From Escherichia coli (GTDB lineage Bacteria; Pseudomonadota; Gammaproteobacteria; Enterobacterales; Enterobacteriaceae), in the NCBI RefSeq assembly GCF_003790525.1, contig NZ_CP033635.1: 64,000 nucleotides of DNA; one strand, written 5' to 3'. The notes beneath the pieces were generated by a model. It had not been told where the DNA came from. It saw only the letters and a list, made by a program, of their open reading frames with translations, and ran no database searches. Numbering within the stretch: position 1 is the stretch's first letter; every line of letters starts with the position of its first letter. Shown here piece by piece: positions 6,338-53,338 of this stretch. The translations under genes were made by a program, and so were the position numbers.

Positions 6338-7763
6338 TAATGCCGATCAGTTAAGGATCAGTTGACCGATCCAGTGGCTGTGTAAGAATCCGGAAACGCT
6401 CACTTGTTTCCGGATTTTTTTATGCACATTGGACAGGCTCTTGATCTGGTATCCCGTTACGATTCTCTGCGTAACCCACTGACTTCTCTGGGGGATTACC
6501 TCGACCCCGAACTCATCTCTCGTTGCCTTGCCGAATCAGGTACTGTAACGCTACGCAAGCGCCGTCTTCCCCTCGAAATGATGGTCTGGTGTATTGTTGG
6601 CATGGCGCTTGAGCGTAAAGAACCTCTTCACCAGATTGTGAATCGCCTGGACATCATGCTGCCGGGCAATCGCCCCTTCGTTGCCCCCAGTGCCGTTATT
6701 CAGGCCCGCCAGCGCCTGGGAAGTGAGGCTGTCCGCCGCGTGTTCACGAAAACAGCGCAGCTCTGGCATAACGCCACGCCGCATCCGCACTGGTGCGGCC
6801 TGACCCTGCTGGCCATCGATGGTGTGTTCTGGCGCACACCGGATACACCAGAGAACGATGCAGCCTTCCCCCGCCAGACACATGCCGGGAACCCGGCGCT
6901 CTACCCGCAGGTCAAAATGGTCTGCCAGATGGAACTGACCAGCCATCTGCTGACGGCTGCAGCCTTCGGCACGATGAAGAACAGCGAAAATGAGCTTGCT
7001 GAGCAACTTATAGAACAAACCGGCGATAACACTCTGACGTTAATGGATAAAGGTTATTACTCACTGGGACTGTTAAATGCCTGGAGCCTGGCGGGAGAAC
7101 ACCGCCACTGGATGATACCTCTCAGAAAGGGAGCGCAATATGAAGAGATCAGAAAACTGGGTAAAGGCGATCATCTGGTGAAGCTGAAAACCAGCCCGCA
7201 GGCACGAAAAAAGTGGCCGGGACTGGGAAATGAAGTGACAGCCCGCCTGCTGACCGTGACGCGCAAAGGAAAAGTCTGCCATCTGCTGACGTCGATGACG
7301 GACGCCATGCGCTTCCCCGGAGGAGAAATGGCGGAACTGTACAGTCATCGCTGGGAAATCGAACTGGGATACAGGGAGATAAAACAGACGATGCAACTGA
7401 GCAGGCTGACGCTGAGAAGTAAAAAACCGGAGCTTGTGGAGCAAGAGCTGTGGGGTGTCTTACTGGCTTATAATCTGGTGAGATATCAGATGATTAAAAT
7501 GGCGGAACATCTGAAAGGTTACTGGCCGAATCAACTGAGTTTCTCAGAATCATGCGGAATGGTGATGAGAATGCTGATGACATTGCAGGGCGCTTCACCG
7601 GGACGTATACCGGAGCTGATGCGCGATCTTGCAAGTATGGGACAACTTGTGAAATTACCGACAAGAAGGGAAAGGGCCTTCCCGAGAGTGGTAAAGGAGA
7701 GGCCCTGGAAATACCCCACAGCCCCGAAAAAGAGCCAGTCAGTTGCTTAACTGACTGGCATTA
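6338..7763 (+). mobile_element. Insertion sequence IS4, complete copy (1426 bp)
   Basis: 18-bp terminal inverted repeats TAATGCCGATCAGTTAAG (6338-6355) and the reverse complement of CTTAACTGACTGGCATTA (7746-7763), one mismatch between them; single transposase ORF; flanked by a 12-bp direct repeat; length equals the known IS4 size. Confidence 0.9.
6422..7750 (+). CDS. insG: IS4 transposase (DDE family)
   Basis: 442-aa ORF from the ATG at 6422 ([19 protein letters not shown]...); the ORF track starts 18 bp earlier at a TTG. Confidence 0.9.
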
Positions 7764-11448: not shown

Positions 11449-11530
11449 CCCAGAGGTATTGATAGGTGAAGTCAACTTCGGGTTGAGCACATGAATTACA
11501 CCAGCCTGCGCAGATGCGCAGGTTTTTTTT
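11449..11530 (+). ncRNA. omrB: OmrB small RNA
   Basis: Starts CCCAGAGGTATTGATAGGTGAAGTC..., ends with GC-rich hairpin GCGCAGATGCGCAGG plus a T-run; shares 5' and 3' ends with the copy about 200 bp downstream; sits between galR and aas as in K-12. Confidence 0.85.
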
Positions 11531-11645: not shown

Positions 11646-11733
11646 CCCAGAGGTATTGATTGGTGAGATTATTCGGTACGCTCTTCGTACCCTGTCTCTT
11701 GCACCAACCTGCGCGGATGCGCAGGTTTTTTTT
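11646..11733 (+). ncRNA. omrA: OmrA small RNA
   Basis: Starts CCCAGAGGTATTGATTGGTGAGATTATTCGG..., ends with hairpin GCGCGGATGCGCAGG plus a T-run; paralog of omrB. Confidence 0.85.
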
Positions 11734-15166: not shown

Positions 15167-15204
15167 GCTTTCACCAGATGGCATATTCCGCCATCTGGTG
15201 AACG

Positions 15205-16860
15205 TCACATTCCCGAAGGGTGCATACCTTTCGGATACTTCACGCTGTATGAGAATGGCAGACTCACGTTCTCTTTACCTGACAGTTTCAGCGTCCAGGA
15301 CAGTTCACCCGTTTTCGCATCAAACTGCGCCTGACCATACTGCATTTTTTCCACCGTAATATCACTATTAGCACTGACTGGGATCTGGTCGAGCAGAGTG
15401 ATATCCACCGCGTCGCCGTAGCTGTTCTTTACATTAAGGGTGTAACTGAAGTTGCGCACCGCGCTGTCATTAAAGATAGATAACGCATTCTCTTTTTTGA
15501 GTACGGCTTTACGTTGAATAATCAGCTTGGGATCGCGGTTAAGCTGAATATCCAGCGACTTGCCATCTTCCGGCGGCTGCAAATAGCCCACGCCGGTACG
15601 ATTGTTACCAAAGAAGATCTGACTTTCGCCGGGGATTAAATTTAACTGTTCCCACTCTTTAATTTGCACCTGGAGATAAGCGTCATTACTGATCTTCGGA
15701 ATAGCAAAGAAGCGATATTCACCGCTGACCGATTCCTCCTTAATGACCACCGTGCGCGCGGTGTTGTCGCTGTCGATTTGCCACGGCAGCGAAAGCGCAT
15801 AGCGAACATTTTGCGCGGTGAAACTTTCTGGTCGCGCCGAAGCTGGTGCTGCCTGTGCGGCATACTTGCGCCCGGCTGGTCGCTCCCTTGATTTTTGCAT
15901 CTCTGCCTCCAGGGATTTCTGCAATTCTGATGCATCCTGGTCAGACGAATATTCCGAACGCTGTTTCATCACGGGTGTTGCTGAAAGCGAGCCGCTTACA
16001 CCACCATACTCAGTCACATCCACATACAGAGGTTCCAGGTGTGGCAGCGTGAGATGAGTATCAGGTTCACTGGTCGAGAGCACGAGATTAACGTTTTTCC
16101 ATGGCAACCCCGTATACTGGCGAATATTAGCCTTGTAAACCAGACGCAGCGGTTGGTTTATGCCCGTGGCGTGAATATCATAGATCGGCGTCCATGTAGC
16201 ATCAGGAGTTATATAATGCACCACCGCTTTCGCAGTGACGGCTTTTGGGACATATACCTTAGCGATGATAACCTGCGGATCATCGGATGCCTCTGAATCA
16301 CCGTTATTCATACTCTCGCGTTGCTCCAACTTTTCAATTCCAAGCTGGTTATCAGCAAGTTTCTGCGTCAACTCATTGTCAGCCCGTAATAACTCACCAT
16401 TTTTCTCTTTCACCATTTGCAGATACTTGCCAACTTCGGCGGCACTTTTATTGGTTAATGTGCTATTTGCCTCTAATACCTTAATTTGAGCCGCGATATT
16501 GTTTTTCTCGGCGGTCAGTTTTGCCTGTTCCACCTTTACTGCTTTTAACTGTTGCTGAGTATCTGACGGCAGCGCATTCGGCTGTGTTTCCATTAGCGCG
16601 ATACGTGAGGAAAGCACCGTCACTCCGTTATCGATAGAAATGGCGATGCTGTCGTCGGTTACCGAATTGGCGATATTAGTGAAAATAATTTCGCTTTCAC
16701 CTGCCGGTAAGTTGAGTGTCTCTTCACCTTGTAGGCTGGCACCATGCAGATAAACAGTGACGTCTTTGAGTGTTAGCGCTTGAGTTAACTGCGCCCCCCA
16801 GGCGGAGGACAGGCACCCGGTAAGCAACATGGCGAGGGGAATAGGTTTGAAAATCAACAT
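15205..16860 (-). CDS. Hypothetical secreted or lipo-protein with central coiled coil (DUF4139/DUF4140-like architecture, tentative); not recalled in K-12
   Basis: ORF track 15205..16875 (556 aa, TTG); likelier start is the ATG at 16858-16860 preceded by AAGGA (MLIFKPIPLAMLLTGCLSSAWGAQ...); N-terminal signal peptide with possible lipobox LTGC; heptad-like QQQLKAVKVEQAKLTAEKNNIAAQIKVLEAN...; domain assignment is from memory. Confidence 0.7.
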   Translation of the reverse strand: MLIFKPIPLAMLLTGCLSSAWGAQLTQALTLKDVTVYLHGASLQGEETLNLPAGESEIIFTNIANSVTDDSIAISIDNGVTVLSSRIALMETQPNALPSDTQQQLKAVKVEQAKLTAEKNNIAAQIKVLEANSTLTNKSAAEVGKYLQMVKEKNGELLRADNELTQKLADNQLGIEKLEQRESMNNGDSEASDDPQVIIAKVYVPKAVTAKAVVHYITPDATWTPIYDIHATGINQPLRLVYKANIRQYTGLPWKNVNLVLSTSEPDTHLTLPHLEPLYVDVTEYGGVSGSLSATPVMKQRSEYSSDQDASELQKSLEAEMQKSRERPAGRKYAAQAAPASARPESFTAQNVRYALSLPWQIDSDNTARTVVIKEESVSGEYRFFAIPKISNDAYLQVQIKEWEQLNLIPGESQIFFGNNRTGVGYLQPPEDGKSLDIQLNRDPKLIIQRKAVLKKENALSIFNDSAVRNFSYTLNVKNSYGDAVDITLLDQIPVSANSDITVEKMQYGQAQFDAKTGELSWTLKLSGKENVSLPFSYSVKYPKGMHPSGM

Positions 16861-16974
16861 GGTTATCCTTAACAATGGGCACAGACATTGAAACGCGCGC
16901 TGGCGTTGACCAAAAGAGTCTATTGCGCTTTGTCAGGAAAGATGCGGCGAAAAGTAGTGAATACATTCTGAAAA

Positions 16975-17011
16975 GTGGAGAAAAGAGACGCCTGGCGCAA
17001 AACACCAGGCG
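16975..17011 (-). terminator. Intrinsic terminator after tas
   Basis: On the minus strand: CGCCUGGUG-uuuug-CGCCAGGCG followed by UCUCUUUUCUCC, just downstream of the tas stop; implies the downstream unknown gene has its own promoter. Confidence 0.5.
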
Positions 17012-17017
17012 AAAGGA

Positions 17018-18058
17018 TCACGGTGCCGGATACGTATAAACCTGATGCACCGCTTCAATTTCAGCTAATACGTCTTCGCTTAACTCCAGATGCAAACTTT
17101 CGACGTTAGTTTTCAGCTGCTCCATCGTGGTTGCGCCCAGCAGAGTGCTGGCAACAAACGGTTGACGGCGTACAAAAGCGAGCGCCATCTGAGCAGGATC
17201 CAGGCCATGACGTCTGGCGATATCAACATACGCCGCGACGGCTTTTTGCGTTTGCTCACCGCTATAGCGGGTGAACCGACTAAAGAGCGTATTACGTGCG
17301 CCAGCGGGTTTTGCACCATTGAGATATTTCCCGGTCAGCGTGCCGAAACCCAGGCACGAATAGGCCAGCAGTTCGACCCCTTCATACTGACTGACTTCTG
17401 CCAGACCTACTTCAAAACTGCGGTTTAACAGACTGTAGGGATTTTGAATGGTGACAATACGCGGCAGATCGTGTTTGTCCGCCAGATGCAGGTAGCGCAT
17501 TACGCCAAATGCAGTTTCGTTCGACACGCCGATATAACGAATTTTTCCCGCGCGTTGGTACTCTGCCAGTGCGTCCAGTGTATCCAGCAGCGAAACCGCA
17601 GGCGCAGAATCTGTCCAGCTATAACCGAGTTTGCCGAAGCAGTTGGTTGGGCGCTGCGGCCAGTGCACCTGATAGAGATCGAGGTAATCAGTCTGCAGAC
17701 GCTTGAGGCTGTCATGCAGCGCTTCGCGGATATTCTTCCGATCCAGCGCCTGATCCGGGCGGATGCCTTTGTCATTATTGCGCGACGGTCCGCTCACTTT
17801 GGAGGCGATAATTAACTTTTCGCGGCTGCCATGTTTCGCCAGCCAGTTGCCGACGTAGGTTTCGGTTAGCCCTTGAGTTTCGGGGCGCGGAGGTACTGGG
17901 TACATTTCGGCAACGTCGATAAGGTTAATGCCCTGAGCGACGGCATAGTCGAGTTGTGCGTGGGCGTCGGCTTCGCTGTTCTGTTCACCAAACGTCATCG
18001 TGCCAAGCCCCAGCGTGCTGACTTCCAGCGAACTGTGGGGTATACGGTGATATTGCAT
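17018..18058 (-). CDS. tas: NADP(H)-dependent aldo-keto reductase
   Basis: 346-aa ORF MQYHRIPHSSLEVSTLGLGTMTFG...; matches K-12 Tas. Confidence 0.9.
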   Translation of the reverse strand: MQYHRIPHSSLEVSTLGLGTMTFGEQNSEADAHAQLDYAVAQGINLIDVAEMYPVPPRPETQGLTETYVGNWLAKHGSREKLIIASKVSGPSRNNDKGIRPDQALDRKNIREALHDSLKRLQTDYLDLYQVHWPQRPTNCFGKLGYSWTDSAPAVSLLDTLDALAEYQRAGKIRYIGVSNETAFGVMRYLHLADKHDLPRIVTIQNPYSLLNRSFEVGLAEVSQYEGVELLAYSCLGFGTLTGKYLNGAKPAGARNTLFSRFTRYSGEQTQKAVAAYVDIARRHGLDPAQMALAFVRRQPFVASTLLGATTMEQLKTNVESLHLELSEDVLAEIEAVHQVYTYPAP

Positions 18059-42156: not shown

Positions 42157-42981
42157 ATGATCATCGAAAAAGTCATGAACAATAATTGTGTACAGGCATC
42201 GATGAATGGACAGGAGGTTATCATTTCTGGGCCTGGCGTCGGTTACAACAAAAAATATGGAATGTCGGTCCCTGAGCATCCGGCTAACCGGATTTTTTAT
42301 GTCAGAAATGAACAAAAAAATAAACTCTACAAATTGATTGAACATGTGGATATTGAGTATGTTTTTGTTGCCGAAAAAATAGTGCAATATGCGGAGAACA
42401 ATCTCGAAAAAAATCTCAATCCATCGCTACTATTGATTCTTGCTGATCACATTTCGAATGCAATATCCCGAGTCGCTTCAGGCATACAAATTAATAATGT
42501 TTTCCTTGATGAAATCAAAGCGTTGTACAAAGCAGAGTATGCGATAAGTCGCGATGCATTAACTATCATTAATGAGCAATTCAGCGTTCAACTTCCTGAT
42601 GATGAGATTGGTTTTATAGCATTGCATATTTTAAATAATTATGAAAATTCAGTTGATTATGAATCAGTACGGATTATTGAGTTGTCGCAAATAATCACGG
42701 GGCTTATTGAAGTTGTTTATAACAGAAAGGTGGACAGAAGTTCATTTAATTATTCCAGGTTCATGATACACCTTAAATATTTTTCAAGTCGCGTATTATG
42801 TAATGAAAAGATAAAACAAAAAGATATTGGTGACATCTATGAGCAGTTTCTTGAGAAAGACATCCTGTTACAGCGCGCAATTCATGAAATTGAACGGTAT
42901 CTGTATGCCACTTTTAAATATGAATTAATTTTAGAAGAAAAACTATATCTCTCAATTCGTACCAAAGTATTAATGGACTAA
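42157..42981 (+). CDS. BglG/LicT-family PRD-containing transcription antiterminator
   Basis: ORF track 42100..42981; start taken at the ATG at 42157; N-terminal CAT-like region (IEKVMNNNCVQASMNGQEVIISGPGVGY) and PRD regions with conserved His contexts (LPDDEIGFIALHIL, RFMIHLKYFSSRV) resembling BglG (LPKDEVGFIAMHL, RLVTHLKFLSWRI). Confidence 0.8.
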   Translation: MIIEKVMNNNCVQASMNGQEVIISGPGVGYNKKYGMSVPEHPANRIFYVRNEQKNKLYKLIEHVDIEYVFVAEKIVQYAENNLEKNLNPSLLLILADHISNAISRVASGIQINNVFLDEIKALYKAEYAISRDALTIINEQFSVQLPDDEIGFIALHILNNYENSVDYESVRIIELSQIITGLIEVVYNRKVDRSSFNYSRFMIHLKYFSSRVLCNEKIKQKDIGDIYEQFLEKDILLQRAIHEIERYLYATFKYELILEEKLYLSIRTKVLMD

Positions 42982-43012
42982 TTATATATAACATTTATAT
43001 GAGATAACCCAC

Positions 43013-44593
43013 ATGAAACAAAAGAAAGCCTGGAGTTTTTTTCAGAGCCTGGGAAAGGCATTCATGTATCCCATTGCTCTGCTAAGTGTATGTGGCATGA
43101 TGCTAGGGCTGGGAAGTGGTTTAGCCAGTGATGATATGGCAAAGTTAATTCCATTTCTGGCTATTCCAATAATTAAAACCATACTTGATTTCATTGTTAG
43201 TCTTGGTTTGTTTGCCTTTGTTAATTTACCTGTATTGTTTGCGATAGCGATTCCCTTAGGATTATTAAAAGATAAAGAGGATAAAGCCTATGGTGCTTTT
43301 TCTGGCTTAATTGGTTTTATGGCGATGCATCTGGGAACGAACTTTTATCTTAAACAGCACGACTTATTGGTCGCTGCTGACCAAATGTCGACACATGGGC
43401 AAACCATCATTCTGGGGATCCAGTCCTACAATACCAGCGTGTTAGGGGGAATTGTTGCTGGGTTATTAGTCGCCAGCATGTATAAAAAGATCGTTAATTT
43501 ACGCATTCCTGAATCATTAGGTTTTTATAGCGGCCCACGTCTGGTGCCTATCATTACACTGATTGTGATGAGTGGATTTGGTCTGATCATCCCTTTTATC
43601 TGGCCGCCGTTTTTCAATCTTTTCATGCTCATTGGCCACTGGATTTCAACTTCCGGTCCTGTTGGCTATTTTTTCTATGCAGTCGCCGAACGCGTGACGA
43701 TACCTTTTGGTTTAAATCACCTGGTGACGTCAGTTTTCCGCTTTACCCCCATCGGCGGATCGGCAGTGATCGGCGGCGAAGAGTATTATGGCACCCTGAA
43801 CATGTTTATGGCGTACGTCAAAGAGAATGCGGTCATTCCGCTGGATTTGGCGGGGAAAATGGAACAGGGCAAACTGATGATTCAGTATGGTCTGGCTGGT
43901 GCCGCGCTGGCGATGTATCGCACTGCTCATGCTCAAAACAGAAAAGCTATCAAAGCATTGCTTATTTCCGGGGTGCTTACAGTCATTATTGGCGGCGTCA
44001 GCGAACCGATTGAGTTTCTGTTCTTATTTGTCAGTCCACTGCTGTTTGTCTTCCATGCATTTATGAATGGATTCGCCAACATGGTCTTGCCATATATGGG
44101 CGTGAAGATGGGATTTACTGGCGATCTGATTCAATTTATTAGCTTTGGCGTATTGCGTGGCACAAGAACAGGTTGGCCAATAGCGGTGTGTGTCGAAGTG
44201 GCCTATTTCTTTATTTATTACTTTGTGTTCCGTTGGACTATTCTCAAATTTAACCTGATGACGGTAGGCCGTGAAGAGTCCAGTCCTGTCACGCTGAACG
44301 CTCATGAGGATACGGCTATAGCGGATATCCCAACTCCTGATAAATCAGAGCTGCAAGCGGCGGAGCAGATGGTTAAGGCACTTGGTGGTAAAGAGAATAT
44401 TAAGTCACTGGATAATTGCGTAACTCGTTTACGTTTAACAATCGCAGATATGGGATTGCTTGACGAGGCTGCAATAAAAAGAGCCGGCGGAATTGCGGTT
44501 GTTAAACTTGATCAAAATACCCTACAAGTCATTATCGGTACTAAAGTCATCGCCTTGCGTCGGGATATGGATAACTACATGGGGATATGCTGA
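43013..44593 (+). CDS. PTS glucose-family EIICB component, MalX-like
   Basis: 526-aa polytopic ORF with C-terminal EIIB motif NCVTRLR; collinear similarity to K-12 MalX (SYDLGKAFMYPIALLS vs FQQLGKTFMLPVALLS; EPIEFLFLFVSP vs EPLEFLFLFVAP). Confidence 0.85.
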   Translation: MKQKKAWSFFQSLGKAFMYPIALLSVCGMMLGLGSGLASDDMAKLIPFLAIPIIKTILDFIVSLGLFAFVNLPVLFAIAIPLGLLKDKEDKAYGAFSGLIGFMAMHLGTNFYLKQHDLLVAADQMSTHGQTIILGIQSYNTSVLGGIVAGLLVASMYKKIVNLRIPESLGFYSGPRLVPIITLIVMSGFGLIIPFIWPPFFNLFMLIGHWISTSGPVGYFFYAVAERVTIPFGLNHLVTSVFRFTPIGGSAVIGGEEYYGTLNMFMAYVKENAVIPLDLAGKMEQGKLMIQYGLAGAALAMYRTAHAQNRKAIKALLISGVLTVIIGGVSEPIEFLFLFVSPLLFVFHAFMNGFANMVLPYMGVKMGFTGDLIQFISFGVLRGTRTGWPIAVCVEVAYFFIYYFVFRWTILKFNLMTVGREESSPVTLNAHEDTAIADIPTPDKSELQAAEQMVKALGGKENIKSLDNCVTRLRLTIADMGLLDEAAIKRAGGIAVVKLDQNTLQVIIGTKVIALRRDMDNYMGIC

Positions 44594-45768
44594 TGGATGT
44601 TTTTAATACTCCTATTTCCCGCAAAGGAACATATTGTACCCAATGGGACTTTTGCGAGGACAGATTTGGTGTAAAAGATGTATTACCATTCTCTATTTCA
44701 GATATGGATCTTCCGATACCAGACGCTATCACCAGAGCATTAAAAAAACGTCTGGAACACCCGATTTTAGGGTACAGCCGTTGGCAGCATGATGACTATC
44801 TGAATGCGATAGTCAATTGGTATCATCAACAATATAAAACTGAAATCAAACCAGAATGGATCACCTATAGCCCAAGCGTGATGTACTCCATTGCTAAAGC
44901 AATAGAGTTATTGACATCGCATGGTGATAATATTCTCGTTTTTACACCTGTCTATAATGCATTTTTTGATATAATTAAACATAGCGAGAGAAATATTCTG
45001 ACAGCCTCTTTGATTATAAAAAATGAGGGGGGCTACGCTATCAATTGGCAAGATTTTGATCTTAAGATTCAAAGCGCAAAGATGGTGTTATTATGTAATC
45101 CTCATAACCCGACAGGAACAGTCTGGTCGGAAGAAGAACTGCATAAAATCGCTGCAAGCTGTACAAGGCATAATGTCTGGTTATGTTCAGATGAAATCCA
45201 TAGTGATTTTGTTTTTAATCGTAGCTTTACATCCGCGCTTAAAATAAAAAAAGAAAAAGTAGTAGTATTTAACTCGATATCGAAAACATTTAATGTTCCT
45301 GCACTAACAGGATCGTATATGATTTCAACTGACGATAATTTTAATCATAAGTTCAGAACGATATCGAGGTATCGCGATTTTGTAAACTCCCCATCAGTAC
45401 TGAATATAATTGCAACTATTATTGCCTATAACGAATGTGAGGGATGGTTAAAGTCATTAAAGGCACATATTGCCTCTAACATTCAATTCACCCAGCAGTA
45501 TCTGAACGAAAACACTCCAGAATTGATCGTAAGGCCAGCTGATGGTTGCTATTTTTCGTGGATAGATTGCTCTGCTATTGGTTATCCCTTTGATGAATTC
45601 TACAGTCGATTAATTCATGAAGGCAAAGTGGGCATTATGGCGGGGAATGTCTATGGAACGGAGGGGGAGGGCTACCTTCGTCTGAACCTGGCCTGCGGTC
45701 GAGAAAAATTATATATGGGGCTTACGCGTCTTGCGAGTGTAATTAAAAATATTAATCAAGGAAAATAA
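44587..45768 (+). CDS. PLP-dependent C-S lyase / aminotransferase class I-II, MalY-like
   Basis: 393-aa ORF overlapping the PTS stop; GTYCTQWDF vs MalY GTWCTQWDY; PLP-lysine context SISKTFNVPALTG vs MalY SGSKSFNIPALTG. Confidence 0.85.
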   Translation: MLMDVFNTPISRKGTYCTQWDFCEDRFGVKDVLPFSISDMDLPIPDAITRALKKRLEHPILGYSRWQHDDYLNAIVNWYHQQYKTEIKPEWITYSPSVMYSIAKAIELLTSHGDNILVFTPVYNAFFDIIKHSERNILTASLIIKNEGGYAINWQDFDLKIQSAKMVLLCNPHNPTGTVWSEEELHKIAASCTRHNVWLCSDEIHSDFVFNRSFTSALKIKKEKVVVFNSISKTFNVPALTGSYMISTDDNFNHKFRTISRYRDFVNSPSVLNIIATIIAYNECEGWLKSLKAHIASNIQFTQQYLNENTPELIVRPADGCYFSWIDCSAIGYPFDEFYSRLIHEGKVGIMAGNVYGTEGEGYLRLNLACGREKLYMGLTRLASVIKNINQGK

Positions 45769-45770
45769 AA

Positions 45771-46367
45771 ATGAACAGCACGGATCTTATCCATCTCATT
45801 AAACATTTTATGCGTAACGAACATAAAGCAGTTGAAGAAGTTATTGATTCCCCCCTTTCGGAGGTCGCAAATTTAATTAAAGTATTACAGTCTTGTCAGG
45901 GGAAAGTTGTTTTTATTGGTGTCGGTAAGTCCGGTATTATTGCCCGAAAACTCGCCGCAACATTTGCCAGCACTGGAACTCCCTCGTTTTTTGTTCACGG
46001 TACGGAAGCGGTACACGGCGACCTTGGAATGGTGGCGAAAGACGATGTTGTTATTCTTATTTCAAACAGTGGTGAGACGGCGGAAATCCTGGCGACACTG
46101 CCTAGTCTGAAAAAAATGGGTAATTATTTGATCTCTTTTACACGCAGTCATCACTCATCGCTTGCGATAAGTTGTGATTTATCCGTTGAAATTCCCGTAA
46201 AAAGTGAGGCGGATAATTTAGGTTTAGCGCCGTCATGCTCATCAACAGTCGTTCTGGTTGTTGGTGATGCGGTGGCGCTTGCGCTCTCCGAATTGAAAAA
46301 GTTTACTCGTGCTGATTTCGGCTTATATCATCCAGGAGGTGCGCTCGGTATTAAAGCAAACTCATAA
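45771..46367 (+). CDS. SIS-domain sugar-phosphate isomerase (KdsD/GutQ-like, no CBS domains)
   Basis: 198-aa ORF; GVGKSGIIARKLAATFASTGTPSFFVH and LISNSGETAEIL closely resemble the SIS core of arabinose-5-phosphate isomerases. Confidence 0.75.
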   Translation: MNSTDLIHLIKHFMRNEHKAVEEVIDSPLSEVANLIKVLQSCQGKVVFIGVGKSGIIARKLAATFASTGTPSFFVHGTEAVHGDLGMVAKDDVVILISNSGETAEILATLPSLKKMGNYLISFTRSHHSSLAISCDLSVEIPVKSEADNLGLAPSCSSTVVLVVGDAVALALSELKKFTRADFGLYHPGGALGIKANS

Positions 46368-46429
46368 TTTCAAAATATAAATACAGTAACCGGTCACGCC
46401 ATCTTTTGGGGTGGCGTTCTTTGAAGTGA

Positions 46430-47386
46430 GTGTCAGCTATGAAAAATGTTCTGGTCACCGTCCCCAGCTTTTCAGCACGCTGTGTTTCCGCCAGCAAGTT
46501 GCTAAGAGAGAATAATTTTAATCTTATTATTAAGAATAATGTGGAGCATCTGCTTAAATCAGAATCCACTGCATTACGAGAATCTATTTGCGCGGTCATC
46601 GCCGGAAAAGATTGTTATCAGGCGGACACGCTATCATTGCTGTCTGGTGTGAAAATAATATCGAGATTCGGGACGGGGATAGACAATATTGATCTTCGTG
46701 CGGCACAGCAATCCGGTATTGTTGTCAATAATGCGGTTGGGATTAATTCAAATGCGGTTGCGGAATTTATCATTGGACTTATCTTCGCGAGCATGAGAAA
46801 TATCCCCGGTAGCTATCATGCGATGCAAAATGGTTATTGGGGCGAGTCGCATGGCTGCGAGTTACAAGGTAAACGTATTGGCCTGCTTGGCTACGGCAAT
46901 ATTGGCAAAACACTGGCGAAAAGGTTATCTGGTTTTGATGTTGAGCTTTTAGCTTTTGACAAACAACCCGATTTCCAGGCCGCAGGCAAAGATGGAGTTC
47001 AGTTCGTATCAATTGAAGATATCTTTATGCAGTCTCATGTCATCATCGTTCTTTTGCCATTTTCTCCGGAGCTGGAGAACTTCATTAGTCATAAATATTT
47101 GTCGATGATGCGCAATGGTGCTCTGATCATCAACGCCGCAAGGGGAAAGTTGCTGGATGAGGGTGCTTTACTTCAGGTAATTGAAGAACGAAATGTTTTT
47201 GCAGCACTGGATGTGTTTAGCTCTGAACCGCTAGCGCAATTTAGCCCATTGCTACATGCCAAGAATATCATTACAACGCCGCATATTGCGGCCGCCACCG
47301 TTGAGTCATACCAGCAAACCGGGATATACGTTGCCCAGTCGATAATTGATTACTTCGCAGGAAGGGAGATAAAAAACGTGCTGTGA
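46430..47386 (+). CDS. D-isomer-specific 2-hydroxyacid dehydrogenase family protein (NAD-binding)
   Basis: 318-aa ORF with dinucleotide-binding motif GLLGYGNIGKTLAKRL and family-typical C-terminal TPHIAAAT. Confidence 0.75.
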   Translation: MSAMKNVLVTVPSFSARCVSASKLLRENNFNLIIKNNVEHLLKSESTALRESICAVIAGKDCYQADTLSLLSGVKIISRFGTGIDNIDLRAAQQSGIVVNNAVGINSNAVAEFIIGLIFASMRNIPGSYHAMQNGYWGESHGCELQGKRIGLLGYGNIGKTLAKRLSGFDVELLAFDKQPDFQAAGKDGVQFVSIEDIFMQSHVIIVLLPFSPELENFISHKYLSMMRNGALIINAARGKLLDEGALLQVIEERNVFAALDVFSSEPLAQFSPLLHAKNIITTPHIAAATVESYQQTGIYVAQSIIDYFAGREIKNVL

Positions 47387-47464: not shown

Positions 47465-47541
<77 letters not shown>

Positions 47542-47575
47542 TCACCGTACTGCTTTTACTTCATCAAATTTTGAT

Positions 47576-47652
<77 letters not shown>

Positions 47653-47685
47653 TCACCGTACTGCTTTACTTCATCAAATTTTAAT

Positions 47686-47762
<77 letters not shown>

Positions 47763-50001: not shown

Positions 50002-50445
50002 TTAAACCTGCTTCGCCGCAGCGATAATCGCCTCGCTTAACGCATTCAACCCCTGGCTGCGTGAGGCGCTAAGTTGCGCACGCAATCCCAGCTCATCAAA
50101 CAATGCCAGCGGCGACTGTGCCTGCAATTCGGCGGCGGTTTTGCCCTCAACGGCAGTCAACAACACCGCAAGCAGGCCGCGCACAATGCGTCCTTCGCTG
50201 TCGCCAAAGAAATGCATCTTGCCGTTTTCAGCCATGGTATATCCCAGCCAGACGCGGTTTTCGCATCCGGCAATCTCTTTAGCCTGCGCTTTTAACTCGT
50301 CTGGCAAAGCCGGCAGCTGTTTCCCCAGCATGATCAACTGGCGATATTTATCTTCCCATTGCGACAACGGTGCGAAGGTATTGCGTAACGTTTCTGCGGT
50401 TACGGTTGTGCCGAACGGATGTCCGGCGAATTGCGGGTTCGTCAT
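50002..50445 (-). CDS. csdE: Sulfur acceptor protein CsdE (SufE-like)
   Basis: 147-aa ORF; start overlaps the csdA stop (TAATG on the coding strand). Confidence 0.85.
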
Positions 50446-51650
50446 TAATCCACCAATAATTCCAGCGCGCGGTCAACGGCATTCACCAGCGCATCCACAT
50501 CACTCTTTGTATTATATGGCGCAAAAGAGGCGCGCAGTGTGCCGGTTACGCCTAATTCTGCCAGTAGCGGCTGAGCGCAATGCTGCCCGGCCCGCAGGGC
50601 AATACCGTACTCCGCCAGCAGTGTCACCATATCGCTGTGATGAACTCCAGCAAAATCAAAGGCCAGCAGGCTGGAATCCTGGCAGCGGAATGAACGAAAG
50701 CCTGGACGTTTCGCCAGCGCTTCTTCTGCAAGCGTTGCTAAGCTACGGCTCCAGCTTTCGGCCTGGTTGATATCGTAATCTGTCAGCCATTCCAGCGCCG
50801 CGCTTAATCCTATGACGCCAGCGACATTTGGCGTTCCTGCTTCCAGTTTCCACGGCGCAGATTGAGTCGTGAAGCCGTCAAAACTCACTTCGTGAACCAT
50901 TTTGCCGCCGCCCAGCCAGGGCGACATCGCTTCCAGCAGTTCTGGTTTGCCATACAGCACGCCGATGCCTGTCGGGCCATACAGTTTGTGACCTGAAAAA
51001 GCATAGAAATCAATATCCAGTTGCTGAACATCCGCGGGGAAATGCACCGCCCCCTGAGCACCATCAACCATCACCACCATCCCGGCTGAATGAGCAAAAG
51101 TAATCGCTCTCGCCAGATCCGGGCAACCGCCAGTGACGTTCGACATCTGGCCCAACGCCAGAATCCGACTACGGGGAGTAATCAGTTCTGGCAACAAATC
51201 GACATCCGGCAGTCGCTGCGCATTAAGCGGCAATTTCACCACTTTGGCCCCCGTTTGTTGGGCGACCATCAGCCAGGGGACGAGGTTGGCGTGGTGTTCT
51301 GCCACACTGACAATAATTTCATCGCCCGGTTGCAGACGCGGACGCGCATAGCATTGTGCCACCATGTTGATGGATTCAGTGGTGCCGCGCGTCCAGACGA
51401 TAGTTTTATCATCCGGTGCATTCAGTAATTGTGCCACTTTTTCCCGCGCAGCTTCGTAACGCGCGGTCAGGCGTTGGGCTTCGGCAAACTGGCTGCGATG
51501 GACGTTTCCGGCGCTCAGGCTATAAAACTGTCGGGTGGCTTCAACCACGGCTTCAGGTTTAAGCGCGGTCGCGGCGCTGTCGAGATAGACGCCCGCATCC
51601 TGTAGCGCGGGAAACTGGGCGCGAAACTGCGCGGGATTAAAAACGTTCAT
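50445..51650 (-). CDS. csdA: Cysteine desulfurase CsdA (PLP-dependent)
   Basis: Start taken at the ATG at 51648-51650 giving [16 protein letters not shown]...; the ORF track extends 12 codons further. Confidence 0.9.
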
Positions 51651-51841
51651 GGTACTCCTCGGCTTGATGCACCGATCGTGACGCAAAATTCACTTTGATA
51701 CAAGGAGAGTGCTAACCATCAGAATTATCTGGATATCCTGGCGAAGCCGCGTCAGTAACATATGCTGAATAGTGTTAGGCGTTAATTTTAGCCTGTTAAT
51801 CAATACTATTAAGATTTATTAATCGCTTTAAGGAGAAGATG

Positions 51842-52069
51842 ATGAAAAAGACTGCCGCAATTATTTCTGCCTGTATGCTGACTTTTGCCCTGAGCGCCTG
51901 TTCCGGTTCGAACTATGTGATGCACACCAATGACGGACGTACCATCGTCTCTGACGGCAAACCACAGACTGATAACGATACCGGTATGATTTCGTATAAA
52001 GACGCTAATGGCAACAAACAGCAGATCAACCGTACTGACGTGAAAGAGATGGTCGAACTGGATCAGTAA
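51842..52069 (+). CDS. ygdI: Small lipoprotein (DUF903 family)
   Basis: 75-aa [36 protein letters not shown]...; clear paralog of ygdR. Confidence 0.85.
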
Positions 52070-52086
52070 TTCGCGATCGCAAGGTA

Positions 52087-52292
52087 AAAAAAAAGCACCG
52101 CAATTAGGCGGTGCTACATTAATCACTATGGACAGACAGGGTAAATGTACAGGAAGTGAAAAAAGGTAGCTTTGCTACCATGGTCTGAATCGCAGACCAA
52201 TTGCAAACACAACAACACAACATCACAACCGTAAGCCAAAAGTTCACCAGAACACGCATTCCGATAAAACTTTTCGTTCCGGCTCAGGAAGT
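52087..52292 (-). ncRNA. gcvB: GcvB small RNA
   Basis: Minus-strand sequence starts ACTTCCTGAGCCGGAACGAAAAGTTTTATCGGAATGCGTGTTCTGGTGAACTTTTGGCTTACGGTTGTGATGTTGTGTTGTTGTGTTTGC and ends in hairpin GCACCGCCTAATTGCGGTGC plus a U-run; divergent from gcvA. Confidence 0.85.
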
Positions 52293-52420
52293 GCCGCCAC
52301 TATAGGTATTTGCTGGTAGAAGCTCAACGGACAATTTATAATGGCTCAGATTAAAAAAACTAATAGGTTACACAGTGTGATCTAATTGTTAAATTCATTT
52401 AACATCAAAGTTTAAAAGCC

Positions 52421-53338
52421 ATGTCTAAACGATTACCACCGCTAAATGCCTTACGAGTTTTTGATGCCGCAGCACGCCATTTAAGTTTCACTCGCGCAGC
52501 AGAAGAGCTTTTTGTGACCCAGGCCGCAGTAAGTCATCAAATCAAGTCTCTTGAGGATTTTTTGGGGCTAAAACTGTTCCGCCGCCGTAATCGTTCACTC
52601 CTGCTGACCGAGGAAGGGCAAAGCTATTTCCTCGATATCAAAGAGATATTTTCGCAATTAACCGAAGCGACGCGTAAACTCCAGGCCCGTAGCGCTAAGG
52701 GGGCGTTGACGGTCAGTTTACTCCCCAGTTTCGCCATTCATTGGTTGGTTCCGCGACTTTCCAGCTTTAATTCAGCTTATCCGGGAATTGACGTTCGAAT
52801 CCAGGCGGTTGATCGTCAGGAAGATAAGCTGGCGGATGATGTTGATGTGGCGATATTTTATGGTCGGGGCAACTGGCCGGGGCTACGGGTGGAAAAACTG
52901 TACGCCGAATATTTATTGCCGGTGTGCTCGCCGCTACTGCTGACTGGCGAAAAACCCTTGAAGACCCCGGAAGATCTGGCTAAACATACGTTATTACATG
53001 ATGCGTCACGCCGTGACTGGCAGACATATACCCGACAGTTGGGGTTAAATCATATCAACGTTCAGCAAGGGCCAATTTTTAGCCATAGCGCCATGGTGCT
53101 GCAAGCGGCTATCCACGGGCAGGGAGTGGCGCTGGCAAATAACGTGATGGCGCAATCTGAAATTGAAGCCGGACGTCTTGTTTGCCCGTTTAATGATGTT
53201 CTGGTCAGTAAAAACGCTTTTTATCTGGTTTGTCATGACAGCCAGGCAGAACTGGGTAAAATAGCCGCCTTTCGCCAATGGATCCTGGCGAAAGCCGCTG
53301 CTGAACAAGAAAAATTCCGCTTTCGTTATGAACAATAA
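52421..53338 (+). CDS. gcvA: Glycine cleavage system transcriptional activator (LysR family)
   Basis: 305-aa ORF MSKRLPPLNALRVFDAAARHLSFTRAAEELFVTQAAVSHQIK... Confidence 0.9.
   Translation: MSKRLPPLNALRVFDAAARHLSFTRAAEELFVTQAAVSHQIKSLEDFLGLKLFRRRNRSLLLTEEGQSYFLDIKEIFSQLTEATRKLQARSAKGALTVSLLPSFAIHWLVPRLSSFNSAYPGIDVRIQAVDRQEDKLADDVDVAIFYGRGNWPGLRVEKLYAEYLLPVCSPLLLTGEKPLKTPEDLAKHTLLHDASRRDWQTYTRQLGLNHINVQQGPIFSHSAMVLQAAIHGQGVALANNVMAQSEIEAGRLVCPFNDVLVSKNAFYLVCHDSQAELGKIAAFRQWILAKAAAEQEKFRFRYEQ

Follow-up and report, generated by a model that had tools for sequence, protein, structure and literature searches.

The window (the whole stretch of 64,000 nucleotides of Escherichia coli DNA analysed here) contains, on its minus strand between ygdI and gcvA, a small RNA gene that we identify as gcvB (Table 1). 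These flanking genes, which the original prediction had already named, are confirmed by NCBIfam models and by the RefSeq annotation: ygdI converges on gcvB from downstream, and gcvA, the product of which activates gcvB, diverges from it, with 128 bp between the gcvA start codon (52421, plus strand) and the gcvB start (52292, minus strand). A cmscan search of Rfam release 15 matched the GcvB family, RF00022, with a score of 199 bits (E 1e-47; the gathering score is 42), over model positions 1-204 of 204 and without truncation, and a scan of the whole window left this result unchanged. The match occupies 52087-52292 on the minus strand, precisely the limits that had been proposed for a minus-strand unit of about 206 nt, and in place of the missing Rfam GcvB match that had been named as the finding that would refute that proposal there is a full-length one at nearly five times the gathering score. 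From 52292 to 52087 the minus strand reads ACUUCCUGAGCCGG...GCGGUGCUUUUUUUU; in what follows, RNA nucleotide n is window position 52293 - n, and the structural elements are those of the RF00022 alignment and consensus structure. Transcription starts at the A at 52292 and the 3' end lies somewhere in the T run at 52094-52086, giving a length of 206 nt by the Rfam match and 207 nt up to the last T. The proposed 3' limit of 52087 agrees with the Rfam coordinates, but the run of nine T extends one base further, to 52086. The RNA folds at -62.1 kcal/mol, compared with -47.1 ± 4.1 kcal/mol for dinucleotide shuffles (z = -3.6; none of 200 shuffles was as good).

Table 1. Features of the gcvB locus, in window coordinates and, within the RNA, in nucleotides from the transcription start
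Feature	RNA nt	Window position	Strand	Basis
ygdI (YgdI/YgdR lipoprotein), convergent with gcvB		51842-52069	+	113 bits; RefSeq annotation
gcvB transcript		52086-52292	-	Rfam RF00022 at 199 bits; identity to K-12 b4443
Unpaired 5' end, ACUUCCUG	1-8	52285-52292	-	Rfam consensus structure
SL1	9-59	52234-52284	-	Rfam structure; fold; covariation
R1, G/U-rich single-stranded linker, main target seed	60-93	52200-52233	-	Unpaired in Rfam structure
SL2	94-112	52181-52199	-	Rfam structure; fold; hairpin kept in 33/33 orthologues with different stem sequences
SL3, followed by UUUUUU	114-128; U run 129-134	52179-52165; U run 52164-52159	-	Rfam structure; hairpin kept in 33/33 orthologues
R2, CACUUCCUGUACAUUU	135-150	52143-52158	-	Conservation; PMC9299463
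R3 seed, CCCUGUCUGUCC, in SL4 loop	152-163	52130-52141	-	Conservation; PMC9299463, PMC3536696
SL4 as drawn by Rfam	145-177 (145-149 pair with 173-177)	52116-52148	-	Rfam structure
SL5, rho-independent terminator	178-199; U tail 200-207	52115-52094; U tail 52093-52086 (whole 52086-52115)	-	Terminator scan
Sigma-70-type promoter of gcvB		52299-52327	-	Promoter scan; conserved hexamers
ATTAGTTTTTTTAAT, ATTA-N7-TAAT dyad, LysR-type T-N11-A box	about -72 to -58 from gcvB start	52350-52364	-	Conserved
gcvA (LysR-family activator of gcvB), divergent		52421-53338	+	NF008352 GcvA, 512.8 bits; RefSeq annotation

The identification is strengthened by comparison with E. coli K-12, the gcvB gene of which has been characterised experimentally. 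In the curated MG1655 record, the ncRNA gene gcvB (b4443) is given as 206 nt at 2942696-2942901, between gcvA and ygdI. An alignment of the gcvA-ygdI intergenic regions shows that the window's transcript is the same base for base, save that its tail is longer by one T (9 T against 8 T in K-12), and the two copies share the start site, SL1-SL5, R1, R2, R3, the promoter hexamers and the position relative to gcvA and ygdI. In the gcvA-gcvB control region two single bases differ, at 52373 and 52416; exact 60-mers carrying the window's bases at these sites occur in 2443 and 4119 E. coli genomes, respectively, and both are common alleles of the species. Together, the Rfam match and the sequence identity to K-12 support the claim that this is GcvB, and we put at about 0.98 the probability that 52086-52292 on the minus strand is the gcvB gene of an E. 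coli strain, encoding the trans-acting, Hfq-dependent small RNA GcvB of about 206 nt. It is an ordinary and well-studied GcvB: the annotation is correct, unsurprising and already known, as had been acknowledged when the locus was first listed as a known feature, and it matters here only as a correct annotation.

The gene is nearly universal in the species. The region with gcvB was found in 5425 of 5426 complete E. coli genomes, at an identity of at least 99% in 5389 of them, and the 1-kb region around it is 100% identical to that of several E. coli chromosomes. An isolate of bovine origin, OkiPb01677 (NZ_AP042483.1, L123 3001-4560), matches gcvB only over nt 1-125, after which comes the transposase gene of the IS4-like element ISVsa5; it appears to be a natural gcvB knock-out brought about by ISVsa5 insertion. 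An exact 60-mer around the 9-T tail was present in 303 of 5421 complete E. coli genomes (about 6%), a count that may reflect other nearby differences and not the T run alone, and the allele with nine T is a minority one; an Escherichia albertii locus also has 9 T. An additional T could alter the efficiency of termination or the binding of Hfq to the 3' end, and hence how much GcvB accumulates and where the lineage sets its amino-acid transport, but nothing positively suggests this, and we regard it as unlikely, with perhaps an outside chance of being right.

Upstream of the start, a promoter scan located a -35 hexamer, TTGAGC (52327-52322), and, after a 17-bp spacer, a -10 hexamer, TATAGT (52304-52299), which ends 6 bp before the start. 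Both hexamers are conserved in an alignment of 30 orthologous upstream regions, where they fall in a stretch (-75 to -7) of strong conservation that also includes the dyad ATTAGTTTTTTTAAT. The T-N11-A form of this dyad is typical of the sites recognized by LysR-family proteins, and on such general knowledge of the family the dyad is a candidate recognition site for GcvA. The conserved dyad and hexamers are consistent, if indirectly, with the activation of gcvB by GcvA.

Within the RNA, SL1 has a conserved outer stem (GCCGG/UUGGC) and an inner stem that varies with compensating changes; in helices 1-3, which make up SL1, seven of the 12 inner pairs change on both sides among 33 orthologues. The G/U-rich string GUUGUGUUGUUGUGUUUGC, to which attention had been drawn from the outset, has a single occurrence in the window, at nt 72-90 of the RNA (52221-52203, minus strand), and the 29-nt stretch around it consists of 26 G or U, two A and one C. 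It lies in R1, which also contains AUGUUGUG, the complement of the target-side core CACAACAU published for GcvB (PMC5900567). The R1 core is invariant in the 33 orthologues, partly by construction (the core was in the search pattern), and the mean predicted unpaired probability of nt 60-93 is intermediate, at 0.48. Further along, SL3 with its U run scores as terminator-like in a terminator scan (52179-52165); it looks like an internal terminator, and the UUUUUU is a possible Hfq-binding U-stretch. A shorter GcvB isoform of about 130 nt, ending at the SL3/U-run site, was reportedly described by Urbanowski in 2000.

R2 is invariant in the 33 orthologues except at nt 148 (at least 90% conserved), though it was in part selected by the search pattern, and R3, which lay outside that pattern, is invariant too; taken as one block, UUCACUUCCUGUACAUUUACCCUGUCUGUCCA-AGUGAUU is invariant across all 33 save for the near-invariant nt 148. 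The sites of published R3 mutations, G156, G160 and C162, have the same bases in the window copy. The 5'-terminal octamer ACUUCCUG is repeated exactly within R2, at nt 136-143 (52150-52157), and both copies are conserved in the orthologues. The strong terminator with which the unit had been said to end is SL5, which at 52115-52094 forms an 8-bp stem, six of its pairs being G-C, with a loop of 6 nt, and leads into the T run; its stem (helix 9) is invariant in the 33 orthologues, though outside the search pattern, and SL5 is named as the GcvB terminator in the literature (PMC5900567).

Orthologues were sought in a collection of species-representative genomes with a pattern combining R1 and R2, which gave at least 120 loci, all of them, among the matches listed, in Enterobacterales. 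When the window's GcvA was used as a tblastn query, gcvA was found upstream on the opposite strand in 108 of the 108 listed loci with enough flank (12 loci with less than about 220 nt of flank were left out of this count), so that the divergence from gcvA, which had been asserted for this one locus, is borne out here and proves universal among those orthologues. In most of the listed loci, 182-193 nt separate the gcvA start codon from R1. Among the same matches, ygdI is convergent downstream in Enterobacteriaceae, Yersiniaceae, Pectobacteriaceae and Hafniaceae, and it was not found downstream in the loci of Morganellaceae or Edwardsiella.

The structural comparison used 33 orthologues with pairwise identities below 93%, aligned with MAFFT. 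When the Rfam structure was projected onto them, 80.9% of cells could pair, compared with 34-50% when the partners were slid by 1-3 columns; 15 pairs changed on both sides, and the covariation score of 0.135 (0.095 for shuffles) was reached by none of 500 shuffles. The SL1, SL2, SL3 and SL5 hairpins are supported by compensatory change; the comparative support for SL4 is weak. Because MAFFT mis-registers SL2, the spacer between R1 and R2 was folded singly for each orthologue, and exactly two hairpins were obtained in 33 of 33, with stems that differ (GGUCUG/CAGACC, GUCCGG/CCGGAC and GGCGGC/GCUGCC are examples). RNAalifold applied to the plain MAFFT alignment gave only 27 pairs and a covariation term near 0; this poor result is attributable to mis-registration of the SL1 inner stem and SL2 between families, the pairs that remain being ones that never vary, and it was replaced by the projection and the per-sequence folding. 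SL4 is the least supported of the helices: for its stem (helix 8, ACAUU/AAUGU) only 70% of orthologue cells pair, and double changes are absent. This is in keeping with the published description of a Pasteurella multocida GcvB that is without SL4 (PMC5900567). RNAalifold offered an alternative to SL4 in which the invariant UCACU of R2 pairs with a downstream AGUGA, a helix that never varies and that covariation therefore cannot test.

In the other families of Enterobacterales (the genera include Yersinia, Serratia, Proteus, Photorhabdus, Edwardsiella and others), gcvB is likewise divergent from gcvA, with the same order of elements, and shares with the window copy the invariant R1 core, the R2/R3 block and the terminator stem. 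It differs in having an R1 linker shorter by 7-8 nt (UUUGUGGUUGUGAUGUUGUGUUUGC; the Enterobacteriaceae have UUACGGUUGUGAUGUUGUGUUGUUGUGUUUGC), and its SL2, its SL3 and the inner stem of its SL1 have other sequences, with changes that compensate each other.

Two other interpretations of the locus deserve consideration. An ATG-initiated open reading frame of 46 aa (MRVLVNFWLTVVMLCCCVCNWSAIQTMVAKLPFFTSCTFTLSVHSD) does exist within gcvB, at 52119-52259 on the minus strand, and Pluralibacter and Escherichia sp. ESNIH1, close relatives within the Enterobacteriaceae, keep it at full length, so it might be supposed that the locus encodes a small protein and that the RNA is an mRNA or has a dual function. 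However, the start codon falls in the variable loop of SL1 and is missing from most orthologues, and the frame shifts downstream even within Enterobacteriaceae, the C-termini being ...FHFLYIYPVCP in some and ...FTSCTFTLSVHSD in others, while outside that family the longest open reading frame at the locus is of 0-34 aa. Conservation of gcvB is at the level of nucleotides and structure, with no sign of conservation of a reading frame, and the G/U-rich composition is enough to explain an open frame by chance; moreover, the title of the paper by Urbanowski et al. (2000), as cited in PMC5900567, calls gcvB a 'small untranslated RNA'. With neither start codon nor reading frame conserved, we rejected the 46-aa product: the lack of frame conservation effectively refutes a coding role, which we consider extremely improbable.

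It might also be argued that gcvB has decayed or lost its activity here, or that the sequence between gcvA and ygdI is no more than a shared terminator and regulatory spacer, and that it plays no trans-acting part in the strain concerned. Such a view could draw on the lack of any gene at this position in the automated RefSeq annotation, and on the existence of natural knock-outs such as that in OkiPb01677. The silence of the annotation, though, reflects the pipeline: RefSeq (PGAP) places no feature under gcvB in the closest genome (NC_010498.1), nor in any of 15 records sampled across the ranking, all 15 of which have the identical sequence unannotated, and among the RefSeq records compared gcvB is named only in the curated K-12 one. 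Scans that rely on PGAP annotations would accordingly meet an 'empty' intergenic region of 350 bp here. The copy itself is intact and has the same sequence as the functional K-12 gene, down to the promoter hexamers, the three seed regions and the terminator, and the two upstream differences from K-12 are the common alleles mentioned above. That identity excludes an inactive copy, and the chance that the locus is a relic or a mere spacer is negligible.

In the literature, GcvB is an RNA of about 200 nt, divergent from gcvA, that is activated by GcvA at high glycine and repressed by GcvR when glycine is lacking, and also by Lrp (PMC9299463, PMC3536696, PMC5900567); it is Hfq-dependent, and R1 serves most of its targets, with R2/R3 serving a few, such as cycA, phoP and lrp (PMC9299463, PMC3536696). 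It is itself subject to decay by RNase E when SroC pairs with SL1 and R3 (PMC4474525, PMC9299463). The function given in the original prediction, that of a GcvA-activated repressor of amino-acid transporter mRNAs, agrees with these accounts (PMC9299463, PMC3536696, PMC4474525, PMC5900567). The published function can be carried over to the window copy because its RNA is identical to that of K-12, and it is from this identity that expression, Hfq binding, dependence on GcvA and repression of targets are to be expected in the strain concerned. Thus, when glycine is abundant, GcvA, the gene for which is adjacent and on the opposite strand, would activate the gcvB promoter, GcvR would block this in the absence of glycine, and Lrp would be repressive. 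The transcript would end at the SL5 intrinsic terminator, the hairpin and U tail of which would bind Hfq, and the single-stranded R1 would pair, within or close to the ribosome-binding site, with C/A-rich stretches of many mRNAs, dppA and oppA among them, that encode biosynthetic enzymes or transporters of amino acids and peptides, R2 or R3 taking its place with some targets. Such pairing would be expected to block translation and promote mRNA decay. The sponge RNA SroC, by pairing with SL1 and R3, would trigger the decay of GcvB by RNase E.

The pairing of R1 with a target was modelled with the C/A-rich leader of K-12 dppA (-44 to -11). With R1 represented by nt 63-92, the predicted duplex has an energy of -27.1 kcal/mol, compared with -20.1 ± 3.0 kcal/mol for shuffled leaders, and six of 500 shuffles were as good. 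The longest ungapped run of Watson-Crick and G-U pairs between R1 and the dppA leader (12 bp) was no better than in shuffles (214 of 1000), a statistic that does not discriminate, because a G/U-rich seed pairs with any A/C-rich sequence. An RNAduplex calculation with full-length GcvB gave -66 kcal/mol for an unrealistic duplex of nearly the whole RNA, a consequence of ignoring intramolecular structure, and was discarded in favour of R1 alone. Of the genes in the window, argA, lysA, yqeG, ygdR, ygdI and csdA were compared with the documented GcvB targets in the E. coli regulon paper, and none is among them.

Two further small RNA genes are found elsewhere in the window, as tandem matches to the OmrA-B family (RF00079) at 11449-11530 and 11646-11733 on the plus strand (86 and 97 bits); the pair fits the usual omrA-omrB arrangement and, by the gene order of E. 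coli SMS-3-5, would lie between aas and galR. Like GcvB, OmrA and OmrB use seed pairing near ribosome-binding sites and bind Hfq through the U tail of the terminator, but they are unrelated to it in sequence and structure, have different regulators (OmpR in their case) and regulons, and match RF00079, not RF00022.

The window as a whole is collinear with SMS-3-5, at 98.4-99.9% identity, plus two extra segments. One of these, of about 1.4 kb (6342-7763), contains an open reading frame of 448 aa (6404-7750, plus strand) that matches an IS4 family transposase model at 304 bits, and its insertion point is within the coding region of ygeA (amino-acid racemase). The other, of about 1.85 kb (15167-17021), lies between lplT and tas and contains a 556-aa open reading frame (15205-16875, minus strand) that belongs to the MuiA (mucoidy inhibitor A) family (TIGR02231, 215 bits). 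On the minus strand, 47465-47762 contains three tRNA-Met (CAT) genes in tandem, separated by about 34 bp; by the SMS-3-5 annotation they adjoin mltA. Between them and amiC (approximately 42157-47386, a stretch 99.94% identical to SMS-3-5), the same annotation gives a cluster of five genes, for a PRD-domain regulator, a PTS EIIC, a MalY/PatB-type enzyme, a KpsF/GutQ isomerase and a phosphoglycerate dehydrogenase. Finally, the csdA open reading frame (50445-51686, minus strand) extends for 413 aa from a TTG codon, 12 codons more than the annotated or model CsdA (401 aa); the NCBIfam CsdA match starts at residue 13, and the true csdA start is therefore probably a later codon.
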